Positions 890 to 6,185 of a stretch of 7,108 bases of DNA are shown here, in pieces; within the stretch, counting starts at the first letter, position 1, and each line of letters begins with the position of its first letter. Source of the DNA: a virus (Duplodnaviria; Heunggongvirae; Uroviricota; Caudoviricetes). The notes below the pieces were generated by a model. That model saw only the letters and a program-made list of their open reading frames with translations, was not told where the DNA came from and ran no database searches. The stretch is taken from IMG/VR virus record IMGVR_UViG_2778261165_000002, positions 1 through 7,108 of that record, one strand, 5' to 3'. A program made the translations under genes and the position numbers.

Positions 890-1413
890 GCCGCCCTCCT
901 GACGCCCTGCCCGATCGCCATCAATGCCGCTTTGGATACGGTAGTAAACATCCGTCGAGGACTGATGAACGGTCGCCAAATCAGCAGCATGGAGCCTTTA
1001 CTGTTTCCCCTCTTCTCCAGCCCTGTCGATGGTTCGATAAAATTAATCCGTCCATCAGTGATAATGCGAACTTCGTCAACACTCTCCAGAGCCTTGCTGA
1101 ACCATCCGACAGACATATCCTCTGGCACAAGCATCACTACCGTCTGTCGCTGTTGTATGCACTGCTCAGCGGCTTTTTCCACCCACGGCCTGATATTGCT
1201 GTACGGTGGGTTATTCCAGATTGCACCGTGGCTTATCCACTCAGAATTGAGTGCGTCGTCGGCCTCAGTTAGCCAGTGAGCGCACAGAGCATTTTTGTCG
1301 CTCGCAGCTGAATCCAGCCAGAATCCAAACTCAATATCCAGCGCATCAAAAAGCCAAAGCGGCGTTTGCCAGCAGTCCTTGTCGTGTGCTGGTGTATTTG
1401 ATTTGATAGTCAT
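886..1413 (-). CDS. Phage Dam-type DNA N6-adenine methyltransferase, 175 aa
   Basis: NPPY motif (motif IV of N6-adenine methyltransferases) in ...[12 protein letters not shown]..., N-terminal CWQTP segment, and a size typical of phage Dam. The ATG at 1413 overlaps the ninB stop as ATGA. Confidence 0.8.
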
Positions 1414-1856
1414 GCAGCCCTACCTTTTCGTTGTGACCATTCATACTCTCGCCGGGAGTCATCACTCCACCGCACGTTGCGCTCTGAGCCGAACCAGAAC
1501 ATGATTTCGATAAGCTCAGTCATGCTGGCCTTTCGCATTTTGCTGGTACGCACGCCAAGCATGACAACGCCACCATCGATACCAGGCACACTTCGTTGCT
1601 CCAGTTTTTTGGTCTTAAGCCACAGGGCAGTGAACAGGTCTTTCCAGTCCTCCGGCGCAAGTCTCTGTCCATGCCATAGCACCTGACGCGAAACATCGTT
1701 CAGCATCGGCCACATACGGTCATTCTGCGCTTTGCTGCGCTTGGGTTCTTTAACGTGGACTTCGTGGGGTGACTTGTCGTCGATGGGTAGTGAGAGAATG
1801 GCGTCTATGGCGTTATTTCTGATTGCTTCGTTGCGAAGCAGAAAGGTTTGCTTCAT
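1410..1856 (-). CDS. ninB: NinB (Orf-family recombination mediator), 148 aa
   Basis: ORF 1410..1958 trimmed to the ATG at 1856 (MKQTFLLRNEAIRNNAIDAIL...), preceded by GGAGAG. Colinear with recalled lambda NinB, including DVSRQV, GxRMxxxExxELxExxxxFGxERxVxWSD and a C-terminal RAA. Confidence 0.8.
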   Translation of the reverse strand: MKQTFLLRNEAIRNNAIDAILSLPIDDKSPHEVHVKEPKRSKAQNDRMWPMLNDVSRQVLWHGQRLAPEDWKDLFTALWLKTKKLEQRSVPGIDGGVVMLGVRTSKMRKASMTELIEIMFWFGSERNVRWSDDSRREYEWSQRKGRAA

Positions 1857-2049
1857 CTCCTGCTCTCCGGTTCCATTTTTCAGCCGCCGCAGCAACTGAT
1901 GGTGCCCATGCCCCCCTGGCTTCACAGAGGTCACATTCTGCATAGCCCCACACATCAATATTTATTCCGGCCTCAACCCACAGACGAGCATTACCGCCGC
2001 AAAACGGACATTCTTTTAGCTTTGGCTGGGTTAATGATAGGTCGCTCAT
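1813..2049 (-). CDS. Lar-family restriction alleviation protein (zinc ribbon), 78 aa
   Basis: ORF 1813..2055 trimmed to the ATG at 2049, with AAGGAG 5 nt upstream. CPFCGG...(24 aa)...CDLC zinc ribbon followed by AAAAEKWNRRA, matching the Lar family pattern CPFCG...C..C...A..WNRR. The 3' end overlaps the ninB start by 44 nt. Confidence 0.55.
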   Translation of the reverse strand: MSDLSLTQPKLKECPFCGGNARLWVEAGINIDVWGYAECDLCEARGAWAPSVAAAAEKWNRRAGDEANLSASQRSNQK

Positions 2050-2059
2050 GCTCACTCCT

Positions 2060-2962: not shown

Positions 2963-3038
2963 GATTTACTCTCCCCAAAATAAAAAGGCCTGCGATTACC
3001 AGCAGACCTGTTACAAGCTCAGTGATGTAGATGGTCAT
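2955..3038 (-). CDS. Candidate 27-aa hydrophobic peptide (MTIYITELVTGLLVIAGLFILGRVNRG)
   Basis: Its ATG overlaps the helicase stop as TGATG, with AGGAGG 6 nt upstream inside the helicase 3' end. One predicted transmembrane helix. Below the ORF-track size cutoff, so found by hand translation. Confidence 0.3.
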   Translation of the reverse strand: MTIYITELVTGLLVIAGLFILGRVNRG

Positions 3039-4474
3039 CAGAATCCTCCTTTCTTCTTGGACTGCGGTTCCTCGCGTTCACGGCGGCGCATTTCAGCAGA
3101 CTGTTGGTCTGTGTCATAAATAGCGCCATTTGCCTGAATGCAATACACCGTGCCGGTATTGCCATGACGATTGAGACGAAGGATTAGTTCGGTTTCACCA
3201 GGTGGAACACTGTCATCAAAAGCACCTTCACGATGGATCCCCACCCAATAATCGCAATCCTGTTCAATCTGCCCTGTATCGCGCGAGTCACTTGGTAATG
3301 GGCGTTTATTGGTTCGGCTTTCCAGTGCGCGGTTAAGCTGTGTCAGAAGCACAACAACGCAATCAAGCTCTTTGGCAAGGTTCTTCAGTCCTTTGGTGAT
3401 CATGCCGTAAGCAAGGTCGTTGCGATCGGCCTTTTCAGCGGTCATTAGTGTCAGGTAATCGACCAGAATCATGCCAACACATCCTTTTTCTCGCTTGATT
3501 CGACGGCTTTCGCTGACGATTTGAGCCAGAGATAATCCCGGCGTGTCGTCGATGTAAAGCAGGTCGATTTCACTCAAGCGATTGGCTGTTTCGATCGCCC
3601 TGTTGAAGTCACCATCGTAATCACCCTGATAGCCGTCATCAGCGTCATTTGTCGCCGGAATGTAAAAAATATTCGGGTTAACACCTGACTTCTGTCCTAC
3701 CAGCTTTTCCAGTATCTGGTCGCCTGGCATTTCAAGACTGAACATCAGAGCGGGCTTTTTCTCATGCACTGCGCAGTTGATTGCCATCTGGCTGTATAGC
3801 GTCGTTTTCCCCATCTTAGGGCGAGCGCCAATGACGAACAGAGAGCCTTTCACCAGACCTTTCGGTGACAGCATCCTGTCCAGAGATGGGATCCCTGTGC
3901 TCATTCCTCGTTGTTCGCCTGACGGGTCAAATCGCTTCTCAAGGTCGCTAACCCAGTCTTCCATGACCTCACCAAATGAGCGAAGGCCGCGACGCGATCC
4001 GGTTTTTGCATGGTCTGTCAGTTGCGTGAAAATCGCCTGAATAGCTTCGTACTTCTGCGTCGCAGTCATTCCGTTGCGGGAATAGAGCAATTCCGTCGCT
4101 TCAGTCATGCGGTTGATGGCGTAGCGTTCCATTGCGGTTTCACGAACCTGCATTGCATAGGCAACGATGTTTGCTGCGCTTGGCGTGTTCTTTGCGATCT
4201 CAGCGATATAAGCAAAACCGCCAACAGACGCCGTTAACGATTTGCGCTCCAGTTCATCGAAAAGCGTCAGCCCATCTACTGGCTTTTGCTCCCGGTGCAT
4301 TCTGGTTATTTCTTCGAAAAGGATTTTGTGTGGTCGGCTGTAAAATGAATCAGGCTTCAGCATCGCCAGAACTTTCCGGACGCGCTCACTGCTGTCATCA
4401 TCCAGAAGCAATCCACCAATCACCGCCTGCTCTGCCTCGATGCTATGGGGCGGCGCATAAAAATTATCGGTCAT
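3038..4474 (-). CDS. DnaB-family replicative DNA helicase, 478 aa
   Basis: DnaB-like N-terminal domain (IEAEQAVIGGLLLDD), Walker A GARPKMGKT, Walker B-like ILVDYLTLM. ORF 3038..4489 trimmed to the ATG at 4474 (GAGGG upstream); the ORF-track start at 4489 is a GTG. Confidence 0.9.
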   Translation of the reverse strand: MTDNFYAPPHSIEAEQAVIGGLLLDDDSSERVRKVLAMLKPDSFYSRPHKILFEEITRMHREQKPVDGLTLFDELERKSLTASVGGFAYIAEIAKNTPSAANIVAYAMQVRETAMERYAINRMTEATELLYSRNGMTATQKYEAIQAIFTQLTDHAKTGSRRGLRSFGEVMEDWVSDLEKRFDPSGEQRGMSTGIPSLDRMLSPKGLVKGSLFVIGARPKMGKTTLYSQMAINCAVHEKKPALMFSLEMPGDQILEKLVGQKSGVNPNIFYIPATNDADDGYQGDYDGDFNRAIETANRLSEIDLLYIDDTPGLSLAQIVSESRRIKREKGCVGMILVDYLTLMTAEKADRNDLAYGMITKGLKNLAKELDCVVVLLTQLNRALESRTNKRPLPSDSRDTGQIEQDCDYWVGIHREGAFDDSVPPGETELILRLNRHGNTGTVYCIQANGAIYDTDQQSAEMRRREREEPQSKKKGGF

Positions 4475-5363
4475 CGTGTTCACCCTCACGAACTTTCAGG
4501 TAGGTATTGTCGTTAAGCAGGAAATCAAATCCCTTTTTGTGCCAGACGGTTCCGCGTTGATGGTTTGGGCGTTCTTCGAACATCCATCGGCAATTTTCGC
4601 CTACGTAGATCAAATAATTTCTCCAGTCCTGCATCGTGAACCCATGCCCGTCAAGCTGGCGGGTTATCACTCCGGCTTTGCGCCAGAACGTTCGGATCTG
4701 GTTTTTACGCTTGTCATTCAGTGCGCGGATTTTTGGCGCTTCAGGAAGGATTTCGTGGTAAGCATCGACAACATCCTGACAGCTAACGGAAGTTTTTTTC
4801 TTGTCAGACTTTTTGTCTGCTGTGGCACTCTCTAATACGTCAGTATTAGAGATAATATTATTATATTCTTTATCTGTGGTAATTTGCTGGTAATCTGCTG
4901 GTACAGTATTGCTTACAGGCATTGGTATTGCTGGCTTTGAGGTGGTAATTTGCTGGTAATCTGCTGGTACAAAATTTGACTGATAATCGTCATATTTCTC
5001 TACCGAGAAAACTGAGAATTTACCGTGTGAAACCCAGTCAATCATGCCGAGTTTTTTGAACTTTCTAAGCAGGTACTGAACGCGATCTGGTTTGAGTCCT
5101 GTTTCAAACGCCAGAGAGTTTCTACCGCCAAGTAGCTTCCCTCTGCCTACCAGAATTTCTCCTGCGTCAGTCATTACATACTCAGGCGTATGCTTTGCTT
5201 TGAGGATTAAGTGAACCCACAGATGCGCTGCTTCTGCGTCCTTGTAAAACGGCACATCCATAATTTTACGGTGCAGCAAGGCATACCCCTTACCGCTGCT
5301 TTGATGCGGTTGTTGTAGCCTTCTGGCCTCTCTGGCTTCGGCTAGATTAGATATGTTACTCAT
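4464..5363 (-). CDS. Replication initiation protein (lambda O functional analogue, non-lambda sequence), 299 aa
   Basis: Sits between cII and the helicase. Strong RBS AAGGAG 7 nt before the ATG. Iteron-like direct repeats lie inside the coding sequence and encode a duplicated [10 protein letters not shown] peptide. Stop overlaps the helicase start by 11 nt. Confidence 0.7.
4876..4971. repeat. Putative replication origin iterons inside the initiator gene
   Basis: Two identical 30-bp direct repeats (4876..4905 and 4942..4971), each with two copies of TGCTGGTA spaced 11 bp apart, plus a degenerate copy near 4929. An AT-rich tract (about 4840..4875) adjoins on the downstream side relative to the initiator gene. 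Confidence 0.6.
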
Positions 5364-5502
5364 GACCTTTCTCCTTCTGCATCAGCTTCACTTTTTCCAA
5401 CTCAGCCCGGAATCGACCAGGCTGCTTGAAGCTGGACAGGAAGCGATCACGTAGTATGTGTTTGTGAATTTTGTCCTGGTAAGGACTGAGTTGTTTTGTC
5501 AT
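5356..5502 (-). CDS. Hypothetical 48-aa protein at the position of the lambda O start
   Basis: Hand translation gives [53 protein letters not shown] lies 5 nt before the ATG in the sequence context I recall for the lambda O start (CAGGAGTNATTATGACAAA). Its stop overlaps the initiator start, and it is in a different frame from the initiator. Confidence 0.4.
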
Positions 5503-5512
5503 AATTACTCCT

Positions 5513-5591
5513 GTGGATTGATCCAGTAATTCCCTCAGAATTCCATCTGGATTTGTTCAGAACGCTCGGTTGCCGCCGGGCGTTTTTTATT
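5513..5591 (+). ncRNA. oop: oop antisense RNA (about 79 nt), overlapping the cII 3' end
   Basis: Plus-strand sequence GTGGATTGATCCAGTAATTCCCTCAGAATTCCATCTGGATTTGTTCAGAACGCTCGGTTGCCGCCGGGCGTTTTTTATT closely matches recalled lambda oop. A CATAAT -10 element lies at 5500..5505. Confidence 0.7.
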
Positions 5592-5828
5592 GGTGAGAAT
5601 CGAAGCAACTTGTCGTGCCAATCGAGCCATATCGTCGTCAACGACGCCCCATTCAAGAACAGCAAGCAGCATTGAGAACTTTGGAATCCAGTCCCTCTTC
5701 CACCTGCTGATCTGCGACTTATCAACTCCAACAGCTTCCGCTGTCTTCTCAGTTCCAAGCATTGCGATTTTGTTAAGCAACGCACTCTCGATTCTTAGAG
5801 CCTCGTTGCGTTTGTTTGCACGAACCAT
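5535..5828 (-). CDS. cII: Transcriptional activator CII, 97 aa
   Basis: [97 protein letters not shown] is essentially recalled lambda CII. RBS and start context TAAGGAAATACTTACATATG as in lambda. The ORF-track N-terminal extension from 5915 is rejected. Confidence 0.92.
5563..5591 (+). terminator. Intrinsic terminator of oop (tO-like)
   Basis: Stem CGCTCGG / CCGGGCG (one G-U pair) with loop TTGCCG, followed by TTTTTTATT. Confidence 0.7.
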
Positions 5829-5838
5829 ATGTAAGTAT
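5806..5838 (+). promoter_or_regulatory. pRE-like CII-dependent promoter directed toward cI
   Basis: TTGC-N6-TTGC CII-binding repeats at 5806..5819 inside cII codons 3-7, with AAGTAT at 5833..5838 as the -10. Arrangement as in lambda pRE. Confidence 0.7.
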
Positions 5839-5861
5839 TTCCTTAACAAATAAGAAGTTAT

Positions 5862-5879
5862 GCGCATCAACTTATGCGC
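5862..5879 (-). terminator. Possible tR1-region hairpin between nutR and cII
   Basis: 6-bp stem GCGCAU / AUGCGC with a 6-nt loop, followed by a moderately U-rich tract (AUAACUUCUUAUUUGUU). Weak as an intrinsic terminator; lambda tR1 is Rho-dependent. Confidence 0.3.
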
Positions 5880-5884
5880 GTTGT

Positions 5885-5930
5885 ATTCCCGCATTTCGGC
5901 GGGAATGAGGACCATGACTGTTAAAGAGCG
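5885..5930 (-). promoter_or_regulatory. nutR-like site (boxA plus boxB hairpin)
   Basis: On the transcribed strand, boxA CGCTCTTTAACAG (5918..5930) lies just after the cro stop. It is followed by a hairpin ATTCCCGC-CGAAAT-GCGGGAAT (5885..5906) whose loop contains GAAA. Confidence 0.6.
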
Positions 5931-5937
5931 GTGTTAC

Positions 5938-6162
5938 TTATGCTGCCTGATTCGGTTTTGGAAACAGGTGTGGCAAATCGGGGCGAATTTCGTAAGCCTT
6001 GATCTGCCCTCCAGTGGCGTTAACGATGGCGGTAACTTTCTCTGGAGAGACCAATCCGCCTTTCAGCCATTTGTGTACTGCTGGCTGCGTTACACCACAC
6101 TTGTCGGCAAGGCGCTTTTGGCTACCGACAATTTTCAAGGCTCGTTGAATTACTAAATTCAT
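5938..6162 (-). CDS. cro: Cro-type repressor, 74 aa
   Basis: Divergent from the repressor gene and immediately downstream of the operator/pR region. AAGAGG 7 nt before the ATG at 6162. HTH-like segment QKRLADKCGVTQPAVHKWLKGG and a C-terminal tail resembling lambda Cro (LFPKPNQAA versus PFPSNKKTTA). Confidence 0.75.
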   Translation of the reverse strand: MNLVIQRALKIVGSQKRLADKCGVTQPAVHKWLKGGLVSPEKVTAIVNATGGQIKAYEIRPDLPHLFPKPNQAA

Positions 6163-6185
6163 GAGCATACCTCTTGTGGTCATTA

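Follow-up and report, generated by a model that had tools for sequence, protein, structure and literature searches.

The DNA analyzed here, a 7108-bp stretch referred to throughout as the window, very probably carries the replication origin of a lambdoid prophage of the HK022/HK620/VT2-Sakai type, located in the linker-coding part of the prophage's own initiator gene. Followed in the direction of O transcription, this putative origin would consist of six 11-bp iterons in two blocks, an A+T-rich tract of ~23 bp and a palindrome of 24 bp. In the window lies the early-right replication module of a lambdoid or Stx-type prophage common in E. coli; of 5426 complete E. coli genomes, 372 contain the origin region. 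An origin had already been proposed by the first-pass annotation for the interval 4840-4975, and the sequence comparisons support that interpretation. The interval holds the repeats and the A+T-rich tract but cuts the palindrome, which had not been noticed, in half; the whole feature spans approximately 4829-4971. The relevant features are listed below.

4464-5363, minus strand: O-like replication initiator gene, 299 amino acids (open reading frame list, PHROG 345)
Initiator residues ~26-125: N-terminal winged-helix domain, predicted (AlphaFold model, Foldseek)
Initiator residues ~131-203: disordered linker, predicted, with the C-terminal domain after it
4942-4971, minus strand: iteron block 1, the first in the direction of O transcription; exact repeat composed of TGTACCAGCAGAT-TACCAGCAAAT-TACCAC
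4906-4941, minus strand: inter-block spacer of 36 bp, encoding 12 residues and poorly conserved
4876-4905, minus strand: iteron block 2, identical to block 1 and 66 bp (6 x 11) away from it in a shared 11-bp register
4853-4875, minus strand: A+T-rich tract, AGATAAAGAATATAATAATATTA on the minus strand, encoding the conserved N/I-rich peptide DKEYNNII
4829-4852, no strand assigned: perfect palindrome TCTCTAATAC-GTCA-GTATTAGAGA with 10-bp arms and a 4-nt centre, directly after the A+T-rich tract
3038-4489, minus strand: DnaB-type replicative helicase gene ('P' of HK022/HK620, gene 12 of P22), identified with Pfam

The two iteron blocks are exact 30-bp direct repeats (GTGGTAATTTGCTGGTAATCTGCTGGTACA), as first reported, and lie at 4876-4905 and 4942-4971 with 66 bp from start to start. 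No other non-overlapping exact direct repeat in the window is as long. Across 200 dinucleotide-preserving shuffles the longest repeat averages 12.3 nt and reaches 16 nt at most, and an exact repeat of 30 bp is far beyond chance. Within each block the unit TGCTGGTA occurs twice at a distance of 11 bp (positions 4885 and 4896, 4951 and 4962), with only one further copy on that strand in 7.1 kb. The initial description of two units per block at about one helical turn is correct in its spacing but incomplete in its count, as each block ends in the coding direction with a truncated or degenerate third unit, TACCAC. The resulting unit consensus is TACCAGCArAT, 11 bp in length and present three times per block; six phased units of 11 bp are a better description of the functional unit than a pair of 30-bp repeats. 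The units occupy nucleotides 393-488 of the 900-nt gene, and the A+T-rich tract occupies nucleotides 489-511. The blocks are purely direct, and an inverted-repeat scan of 4760-5000 detects no dyad symmetry in the iterons, which agrees with the original remark that the repeats are direct and not palindromic like those of lambda.

The adjacent A+T-rich tract is likewise confirmed. Windows of 40 bp within 4830-4889 contain 22.5% G+C, compared with 47.5% across the window, and among all 30-bp duplexes in the 7108 bp, 4844-4873 has the lowest stability (-26.4 kcal/mol; mean -40.4, sd 3.2), even though the tract is coding. The equivalent tract in 75 unique homologues has a mean G+C content of 11% and a maximum of 20%. 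The tract is presumed to be the DNA-unwinding element. The origin has no DnaA box in its vicinity, the sole TTWTNCACA match in the window being far off at 7082-7090, and GATC sites are absent between 4699 and 5083; the signature of a host-DnaA-dependent or SeqA-regulated origin is therefore not found.

The palindrome is the only inverted repeat in 4760-5000, and its single-stranded DNA hairpin has a predicted energy of -8.6 kcal/mol (z -4.5). Of 77 unique homologues, 76 have the palindrome in perfect form, and at least 15 different arm sequences are represented among them. When 32 distinct versions are compared, all 10 pairs are found to have changed on both sides, pairing holds in 97.5% of cells, no pair varies one-sidedly and G-U combinations are confined to 2 of 320 cells, both in the outermost pair. 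The variation thus consists of compensatory changes of the Watson-Crick kind only. On the strength of these alignments, the palindrome is the third conserved element of the putative origin. A search of Rfam finds no family in the window, with neither the palindrome nor an oop-like RNA matching anything curated.

The location of the repeats inside an initiator coding sequence, as originally stated, is borne out by the assignment of the open reading frame to PHROG 345 'replication initiation O-like' (E 2.6e-86). The gene lies between cII/orf48 and the DnaB-type helicase gene, as in P22 and HK022, and its stop codon overlaps the start of the helicase gene. Over all 900 nt, its DNA is 99.7% identical to HK620 O and 99.1% identical to VT2-Sakai O. 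The encoded protein is 98.3% identical to HK022 O, and the O proteins of HK022, HK620 and VT2-Sakai as a group share 98-99% identity with it. The helicase reading frame matches Pfam DnaB_C (E 2.9e-60) and the DnaB N-terminal domain (E 5e-31), and its product is presumed to be the partner recruited by the C-terminal domain of the initiator.

For structure prediction, the alignment was built from a second search with a diverse N-terminal profile, which was needed because the top 120 matches of the first protein search comprised near-identical sequences only. The resulting AlphaFold model has pLDDT values of 75-90 at residues 40-130 (means of 10-residue blocks) and of ~30 at residues 132-203, which are modelled as disordered. 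The mean pLDDT of the full-length model is only 52.8, and since the model is poor outside the N-terminal domain, no claim is made on the C-terminal fold. The listed Foldseek matches are all weak (E 6.5e-3 to 5.7e-2), and nearly all of them are winged-helix DNA-binding proteins; the N-terminal domain is accordingly given here as a predicted winged-helix domain. Pfam returns no named family above threshold for this domain; below threshold it places DUF7376 on the linker and C-terminal part and gives scattered winged-helix hints (E > 0.003). A search of the initiator against NCBIfam yields no match. A PDB sequence search yields only spurious matches to the geminin coiled coil, which fall on the linker and C-terminal part.

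To assess conservation, 118 homologous loci were extracted from Enterobacterales phages and prophages, giving 83 unique 200-nt segments and later 77 unique records. The extracted loci share one layout at the same place in the gene: three plus three units of 11 bp in a 66-bp register, followed by the A+T-rich tract and the palindrome. The exceptions among the 118 loci are one with a single block (L097) and one with three blocks. Block number in nature ranges from 1 to 4, with the spacer duplicated along with the block in the three- and four-block variants, and, given the single-block variant, an origin of this type may not depend on having two blocks. The trinucleotide CCA at unit positions 4-6 does not vary in any of the six units across 75 unique homologous sequences. 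Among diverged homologues of the same class, the blocks are 92-98% identical, compared with 48-59% for third codon positions and 58-67% for the spacer, so that the repeats do persist while synonymous sites vary, a check that had been suggested at the outset. More distant homologues have the matching architecture and gene position with a different 11-bp unit. Because 11 bp is not divisible by 3, copies of the same unit are translated in each of the three frames. Taken as sequence evidence, this pattern indicates that selection acts on the repeats as DNA.

The homologues fall into eight iteron classes, including TACCAGC, TGCCAAC, GTCCAAC, GTCCAGC and ATCCAAA. The adjusted mutual information between iteron class and N-terminal cluster, defined on the helix-turn-helix region, is 0.79, compared with 0.27 for the C-terminal cluster. 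Similarly, the Spearman correlation of the iterons is 0.57 with the N-terminal domain and 0.06 with the C-terminal domain. Rank correlation and cluster-based mutual information are relied upon here because ungapped N-terminal identities are underestimates where classes differ by an indel. Natural chimeras also occur in which a window-type N-terminal domain and its iterons are fused to a lambda-O-like C-terminus; in one of these, Erwinia phage 59, the neighbouring gene is annotated as a P-like helicase loader. Judged from these sequence associations, the unit sequence tracks the predicted winged-helix domain at the N-terminus of the initiator and not its C-terminal domain.

Several known phages carry related elements. 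The ori of HK022, HK620 and VT2-Sakai is essentially identical to that of the window, with few point differences in the gene, whereas the immunity and nin genes form a different mosaic, and no phage record covers at least 80% of the window. Salmonella phages L and ST64T and Shigella phage Sf6 (gene 18 / gene 43) encode homologous initiators with 64-66% identity and a nearly identical C-terminal part. Their putative origins are likewise built from three plus three units of 11 bp, with a block distance of 66 bp, followed by an A+T-rich tract and the same palindrome, TCTCTAATAC-TrAC-GTATTAGAGA. Their unit, however, is TGTCCAACGnn in place of TACCAGCArAT (TGTCCAAC in the phage L/Sf6 type and TACCAGCA in the window), and their N-terminal recognition-helix region reads PDNKVKSLLRSF, where the initiator of the window has another sequence of 12 residues. 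The combined difference in unit and recognition-helix region suggests that the phage L/Sf6 and window types differ in origin specificity. P22 shares the context of orf48, initiator and DnaB-type helicase, the mid-gene position of ori inside gene 18 (271 amino acids) and the order of repeats, A-rich tract and short palindrome. The P22 repeats are ~20 bp in length and of another sequence than the window units. The C-terminal part of P22 gp18 is weakly similar to the window initiator (24% identity, E 6e-4), and its N-terminal domain has no detectable similarity to it.

The resemblance to lambda ori noted in the first-pass annotation holds for element order, orientation and position. In both cases the elements lie mid-gene in a 299-amino-acid initiator, in the linker between a DNA-binding N-terminal and a partner-binding C-terminal domain, and iterons, A-rich tract and inverted repeat follow one another in the direction of rightward transcription with the same orientation to the gene. 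Lambda ori nevertheless has four iterons that are inverted repeats of 18-19 bp, each bound by one O dimer, compared with six 11-bp direct repeats lacking dyad symmetry in the window, and lambda P is a loader of host DnaB whereas the window encodes a phage DnaB-type helicase. Direct similarity to lambda O is rejected (BLASTP E 4.8), and there is no match to Pfam Phage_rep_O (PF04492) even at E <= 1 across seven family members. The absence of similarity to lambda O and of a Phage_rep_O match, along with the co-variation of the unit with the N-terminal recognition-helix region, is in keeping with the earlier expectation that the DNA-binding specificity probably differs from that of lambda.

Theta-replicating plasmids such as pPS10, R6K, F and RK2 use winged-helix Rep monomers that bind direct repeats beside an A+T-rich unwinding element. 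The window resembles these iteron origins in its helically phased direct repeats beside an A+T-rich tract and in its predicted winged-helix initiator, a likeness of functional analogy only. The plasmid units are 17-22 bp in length rather than 11 bp, and the window origin lies inside the initiator coding sequence. A Rep_3-type plasmid replicon was considered and rejected, with no Rep_3 match in Pfam and no DnaA box nearby.

A mechanism of binding, melting and helicase delivery can be inferred from lambda O/ori and plasmid iteron origins as analogues: the winged-helix N-terminal domain would attach to the 11-bp direct repeats in head-to-tail fashion, roughly on one face of the helix, and form a nucleoprotein complex. 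This complex, together with rightward transcription through the gene, would melt the adjacent A+T-rich tract, and the C-terminal domain would then bring in the phage's own DnaB-type helicase, which is encoded directly downstream.

Three other explanations of the region were weighed against an origin. The repeats could be a tandem duplication at the protein level, kept or tolerated in a flexible linker for the sake of the protein and with no function as DNA. In translation one 10-residue peptide does occur twice, the region encoded by the repeats is predicted to be disordered, and the variation between one and four blocks resembles that of many linker repeats. A protein repeat would nevertheless be expected to have a period divisible by 3, whereas the internal period here is 11 bp and identical units encode different amino acids in the three frames. 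The peptide changes completely between lineages while the 11-bp phasing and CCA core are invariant, the blocks are conserved well above synonymous sites and the spacer (92-98% compared with 48-59% and 58-67%), and changes in the unit go along with changes in a distant DNA-binding domain. A role of the repeats at the protein level only is considered extremely improbable. It is also conceivable that the 11-bp units bind the initiator mainly for autoregulation or copy control, by titration or handcuffing, and that the true initiation site is elsewhere in the phage. In iteron plasmids, one set of repeats functions in initiation as well as in control, and for lambda it has been discussed that additional ori copies titrate O (PMC3349717); sequence alone cannot separate an origin from initiator-binding sites with a regulatory role. 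Against such a role, the least stable duplex of the region comes directly after the units, in the order and orientation of the experimentally defined lambda ori, a repeat search finds no other iteron-like array elsewhere in the window, and cited genetic evidence on phages L and P22 locates the origin within the gene 18-12 module. A mainly regulatory function is regarded as very unlikely.

The remaining alternative concerns the palindrome, which together with the plus-strand T-rich run could form an intrinsic terminator at 4829-4862, antisense to the initiator gene, such that the A+T richness would serve termination and not unwinding. A consensus scan does report a terminator-like signal on the plus strand, made up of 4829-4852 and the TAATATTATT that follows it, and an automatic antisense 'terminator' feature in the phage L record overlaps the homologous palindrome. 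The stem, however, contains no more than 3 G-C pairs and A residues break up the tail, and a consensus scan detects no sigma-70-like promoter in 4400-5600 on either strand. The lack of one-sided pair changes and the near absence of G-U combinations in the homologues fit a pairing constraint on double-stranded DNA, or on both DNA strands, better than an RNA hairpin. A terminator would also leave the iterons and their co-variation unexplained, and it is judged very unlikely to account for the tract and palindrome.

The origin prediction is decades old and is already contained in GenBank feature tables. The rep_origin feature of HK620 (AF335538) maps to 4876-4971 of the window, and the VT2-Sakai record (AP000422) labels 4876-4905 as 'ori iteron 2' and 4942-4971 as 'ori iteron 1', with O-protein binding. 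Because the HK620 and VT2-Sakai records already label both repeats as origin, the element is not a discovery. Both annotations cover the two blocks only and leave the A+T-rich tract and palindrome unmarked. The homologous repeat region is also annotated as a putative origin in the records of Sf6 and phage L, and the paper on phage L describes six homologous 11-bp repeats as the likely origin (PMC8022706). These public annotations rest on analogy, with wording such as 'putative' and 'reminiscent of the phage lambda origin'. A literature search on the origins or iteron sequences of HK022, HK620 and VT2-Sa turned up the genome paper of phage L and studies of lambda-type origins only; it returned no experimental demonstration of an HK022-type origin by binding, origin mapping or an ori plasmid, and earlier evidence could exist in the 1999-2004 papers on HK022, HK620, VT2-Sa and Sf6.

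The present analysis shows the anatomy of the element, how its DNA is conserved among homologues and that the iteron sequence varies together with the N-terminal domain. It adds quantitative support for selection on the DNA and for co-evolution with the N-terminal domain, the 11-bp unit structure with its natural specificity classes, and the conserved palindrome, which is unmarked in the public annotations examined. The HK022-type origin is of wider relevance as it would drive replication in Stx phages of clinical importance, VT2-Sakai among them.

A more tentative proposal, considered rather doubtful at present, is that the palindrome is a functionally required, structure-specific origin element and that the iteron classes seen in nature, with the recognition helix belonging to each, constitute a protein-DNA recognition code. 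As an example of such a role, a hairpin or cruciform extruded on melting might mark the place at which the phage DnaB-type helicase is loaded. If true, the proposal would provide a readable recognition code for an uncharacterised family of winged-helix initiators. In the unrelated origins of lambda and P22, an inverted repeat is found at the equivalent relative place.

The window corresponds to the early-right region of a lambdoid prophage; most of its genes lie on the minus strand:

6244-6981, plus strand: cI-like repressor
5938-6183, minus strand: cro-like gene
5535-5915, minus strand: cII
5356-5502, minus strand: small 'orf48'/DUF2740 gene
4464-5363, minus strand: O-like initiator of 299 aa (PHROG 345 'replication initiation O-like', E 2.6e-86)
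3038-4489, minus strand: DnaB-type helicase
nin region: genes that include NinB and a Dam methylase

Taken as a whole, the window is a mosaic for which no phage record reaches at least 80% coverage. Its replication module is common to many Stx phages at 96-98% identity.

The first-pass annotation had placed a candidate origin inside the initiator gene, consisting of two identical 30-bp direct repeats and an adjoining AT-rich tract, and these elements are confirmed. The exact repeats occupy 4942-4971 (block 1) and 4876-4905 (block 2), and the longest exact direct repeat in 200 dinucleotide-preserving shuffles averages 12.3 nt and never exceeds 16 nt. On the coding strand each block reads TGTACCAGCAGAT-TACCAGCAAAT-TACCAC, that is, two full 11-bp units (iterons) and a truncated third. 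The sequence TGCTGGTA occurs at 4885, 4896, 4951 and 4962, and hence twice per block at a spacing of 11 bp, close to the one helical turn originally described. The blocks are spaced at 66 bp (6 x 11), which places all six units in one 11-bp register. The tract flanking the blocks has 22.5% G+C and, though coding sequence, contains the least stable 30-bp duplex of the whole 7.1 kb (4844-4873; -26.4 kcal/mol versus a mean of -40.4, sd 3.2).

An origin of this type has been annotated before. The initiator gene is 99.7% identical to HK620 O and 99.1% identical to the O gene of VT2-Sakai and of numerous other Stx phages, and the protein is 98.3% identical to HK022 O. The two-part rep_origin of the HK620 record coincides exactly with 4876-4971. 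The VT2-Sakai record carries 30-bp misc_binding features, 'ori iteron 1' and 'ori iteron 2', at exactly 4942-4971 and 4876-4905, with the O protein stated as the bound moiety. The homologous place in Sf6 is labeled 'putative; repeat region reminiscent of the phage lambda origin; similar to phage HK620', and in phage L a 'putative origin of replication' is marked. All of these annotations are predictions by analogy. No experimental test of the HK022/HK620/VT2-Sakai origin type was found in the literature searched, and a paper on the biochemistry of the Stx-phage O-ori complex does not mention HK022 or Sakai (PMC7466680). The element is the ordinary, already annotated HK022/HK620/VT2-Sakai-type origin, present in 372 of 5426 complete E. 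coli genomes (~7%), and strong comparative evidence from sequence supports reading it as an origin.

For this comparison, homologues were gathered from six annotated phages, 51 bacterial-genome loci and 80 viral-contig loci. From 118 loci the sequence following the conserved KYD(D/E)(Y/F)Q motif was taken, giving 83 unique 200-nt segments, which were reduced to 77 unique records. Except for a locus that has a single block and another that has three, all 118 loci share one plan at one position in the gene: three 11-bp units, a variable spacer of ~33-36 bp, three further units in the same register, a 10-22-bp A+T-rich tract (mean G+C 11%) and a palindrome. The units fall into eight classes, three of which are each confined to a single locus, and positions 4-6 are CCA without exception in the six units of each of 75 unique sequences.

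Iteron unit classes among the homologues
TACCAGCArAT, the window's own class
TGTCCAACGnn
TGTCCAGCCnn
TGCCAACAGAr
AATCCAAnGnA

The natural copy number of the 66-bp block-plus-spacer unit varies. One block is found in locus L097, where the gene is 66 bp shorter; three in locus L095 and the 321-aa proteins P0002-P0027; and four in protein P0001 (343 aa, 35 member sequences). The existence of these variants indicates that the unit number is flexible. Within any one of these genomes the spacer copies are identical, and the variation is consistent with the pattern expected of unequal recombination between the 30-bp repeats. Homologues of the initiator, an enterobacterial phage protein, also appear in assemblies of unrelated bacteria, namely a 386-bp Xanthomonas pisi contig (L048; 100% identity over the first 84 residues) and a Chryseobacterium sp. 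(L015; 61% identity); assembly contamination is a likely source, at least for the former.

Four observations support the view that the repeats are selected as DNA rather than as protein. A period of 11 bp rules out a protein repeat, since one and the same DNA unit is translated in all three frames, as in TGT CCA ACG GAT GTC CAA CGG ATG TCC AAC G. The block-encoded peptide is wholly different between iteron classes while the DNA phasing is constant. In diverged homologues of the same class (loci L102-L105 and L018), both blocks match those of the window at 92-98% identity, with 48-59% identity at third codon positions of the N-terminal domain and 58-67% in the spacer; the repeats therefore persist while synonymous sites vary, the check that the first-pass annotation had proposed. 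Finally, the protein segment that the iterons, A+T-rich tract and palindrome encode (residues 132-203) has a pLDDT of ~30 in the AlphaFold model and presumably forms a disordered linker.

The palindrome, which the first reading overlooked, is the sole aspect of the locus left unmarked in the public ori annotations examined. It is perfect (10+4+10; TCTCTAATAC-GTCA-GTATTAGAGA, 4829-4852) and lies directly past the A+T-rich tract; 4760-5000 holds no other inverted repeat. In 76 of the 77 unique homologues the same place is occupied by a perfect inverted repeat whose arms are 9-11 bp long; the remaining homologue is the one-block variant, in which the search window missed it. At least 15 different arm sequences occur. 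When 32 distinct versions are aligned, each of the 10 pairs has changes on both sides and none has them on one side alone; paired cells make up 97.5%, versus 63% in column shuffles (none of 500 reaches the observed figure) and 29-47% with the partner slid. The encoded peptide varies, so the constraint is on nucleic-acid symmetry. A minor rival reading takes the palindrome as a terminator on the antisense strand, where it scores as weakly terminator-like. G-U pairs occur in only 2 of 320 cells, and this lack of wobble intermediates is more in keeping with a constraint at the DNA level than with an RNA hairpin. The loose linkage of arm sequence (adjusted mutual information, AMI) to iteron class (0.34), N-terminal cluster (0.48) and C-terminal cluster (0.59) points to a structural role and away from sequence-specific recognition.

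The proposed resemblance to lambda ori holds, as the window, lambda and P22 share the three-part plan and its mid-gene position, including an inverted repeat at the same relative position as the palindrome. Lambda O, also 299 aa, carries four iterons at gene nt 349-433, an A-rich tract and an imperfect inverted repeat (TCAGAGAATTC...GAATCCTCTGA); P22 gene 18 carries ~20-bp repeats, an A-rich tract and CCCCCTAAAGGGGG. The lambda iterons are inverted repeats bound by dimers (PMC6022878), whereas those of the window are short direct repeats without dyad symmetry, and no relatedness is detectable between the N-terminal parts of the window initiator and the lambda or P22 proteins. Both differences support the earlier suggestion that DNA-binding specificity probably differs from that of lambda. 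By analogy with plasmid iteron initiators, monomers may bind head to tail.

Iteron class follows the N-terminal domain. Its AMI is 0.79 with clusters of the helix-turn-helix region versus 0.27 with C-terminal clusters, and pairwise identities give Spearman correlations of 0.57 (N-terminal domain) and 0.06 (C-terminal domain). Recognition-helix motifs sort by class: DR(V/I)KYLLNKF with TGCCAAC, PDNKV(K/R)SLLR(S/T)F with GTCCAAC and ADRVKSLLRKF with GTCCAGC, while the TACCAGC class has its own 12-residue motif. Phages L and Sf6 are nearly identical to the window in the C-terminal part and differ in N-terminal domain and units. Conversely, natural chimeras in this Erwinia phage and several prophages (L008, from Erwinia phage vB_EhrS_59; L049-L052; L055) join a window-family N-terminal domain, 11-bp iterons and palindrome to a lambda-O-like C-terminus, with the module boundary just past the palindrome; in the Erwinia phage the neighboring gene is annotated as a P-like helicase loader in place of the DnaB-type helicase. 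These swaps and chimeras indicate that origin and N-terminal domain travel together, in line with the lambda paradigm, where the O N-terminus binds ori and the C-terminus binds the partner (PMC6022878).

Searches of Pfam, NCBIfam and PDB sequences return no match to this domain. The initiator model has a mean pLDDT of only 52.8, with 10-residue block means of 75-90 over residues 40-130, and shows two helices (81-88 and 92-104) and, after them, a beta hairpin (108-121). Foldseek matches are all weak (E 6.5e-3 to 5.7e-2 among the matches listed) and nearly all are winged-helix DNA-binding proteins, including CadC/SmtB, the CodY C-terminal domain, CRP, TubR and MarR. The modeled fold is therefore likely a winged helix.

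Several further features lie outside the origin. In the nin region, an 80-aa ORF (1813-2055, minus strand) with the helicase gene on one side and NinB on the other matches the Lar family restriction-alleviation protein (TIGR03655, E 4.3e-17). The ORFs at 886-1413 and 1410-1958 (both minus strand) are a phage Dam-type N6-adenine methyltransferase (Pfam Dam, E 1.3e-64) and, immediately upstream of it, NinB (E 1.8e-48); GATC is absent across the origin region (4699-5083). The conserved lambdoid pO/oop box (ACTGGATCaATCcACAGGAGTaATTATGaCAAA) is matched exactly, and a strong terminator-like hairpin accompanies it, at 5495-5527 (minus strand) and 5559-5586 (plus strand); the hairpin is on the plus strand, within the 3' end of cII. 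The pair suggests an oop-like antisense RNA at roughly 5513-5590 (plus strand), for which Rfam holds no matching family. Two intergenic stretches are very A+T-rich (15-17.5% G+C): 6180-6219, between the cro-like and cI-like genes and presumably the operator/promoter region, and 7058-7097, at the right end of the window.
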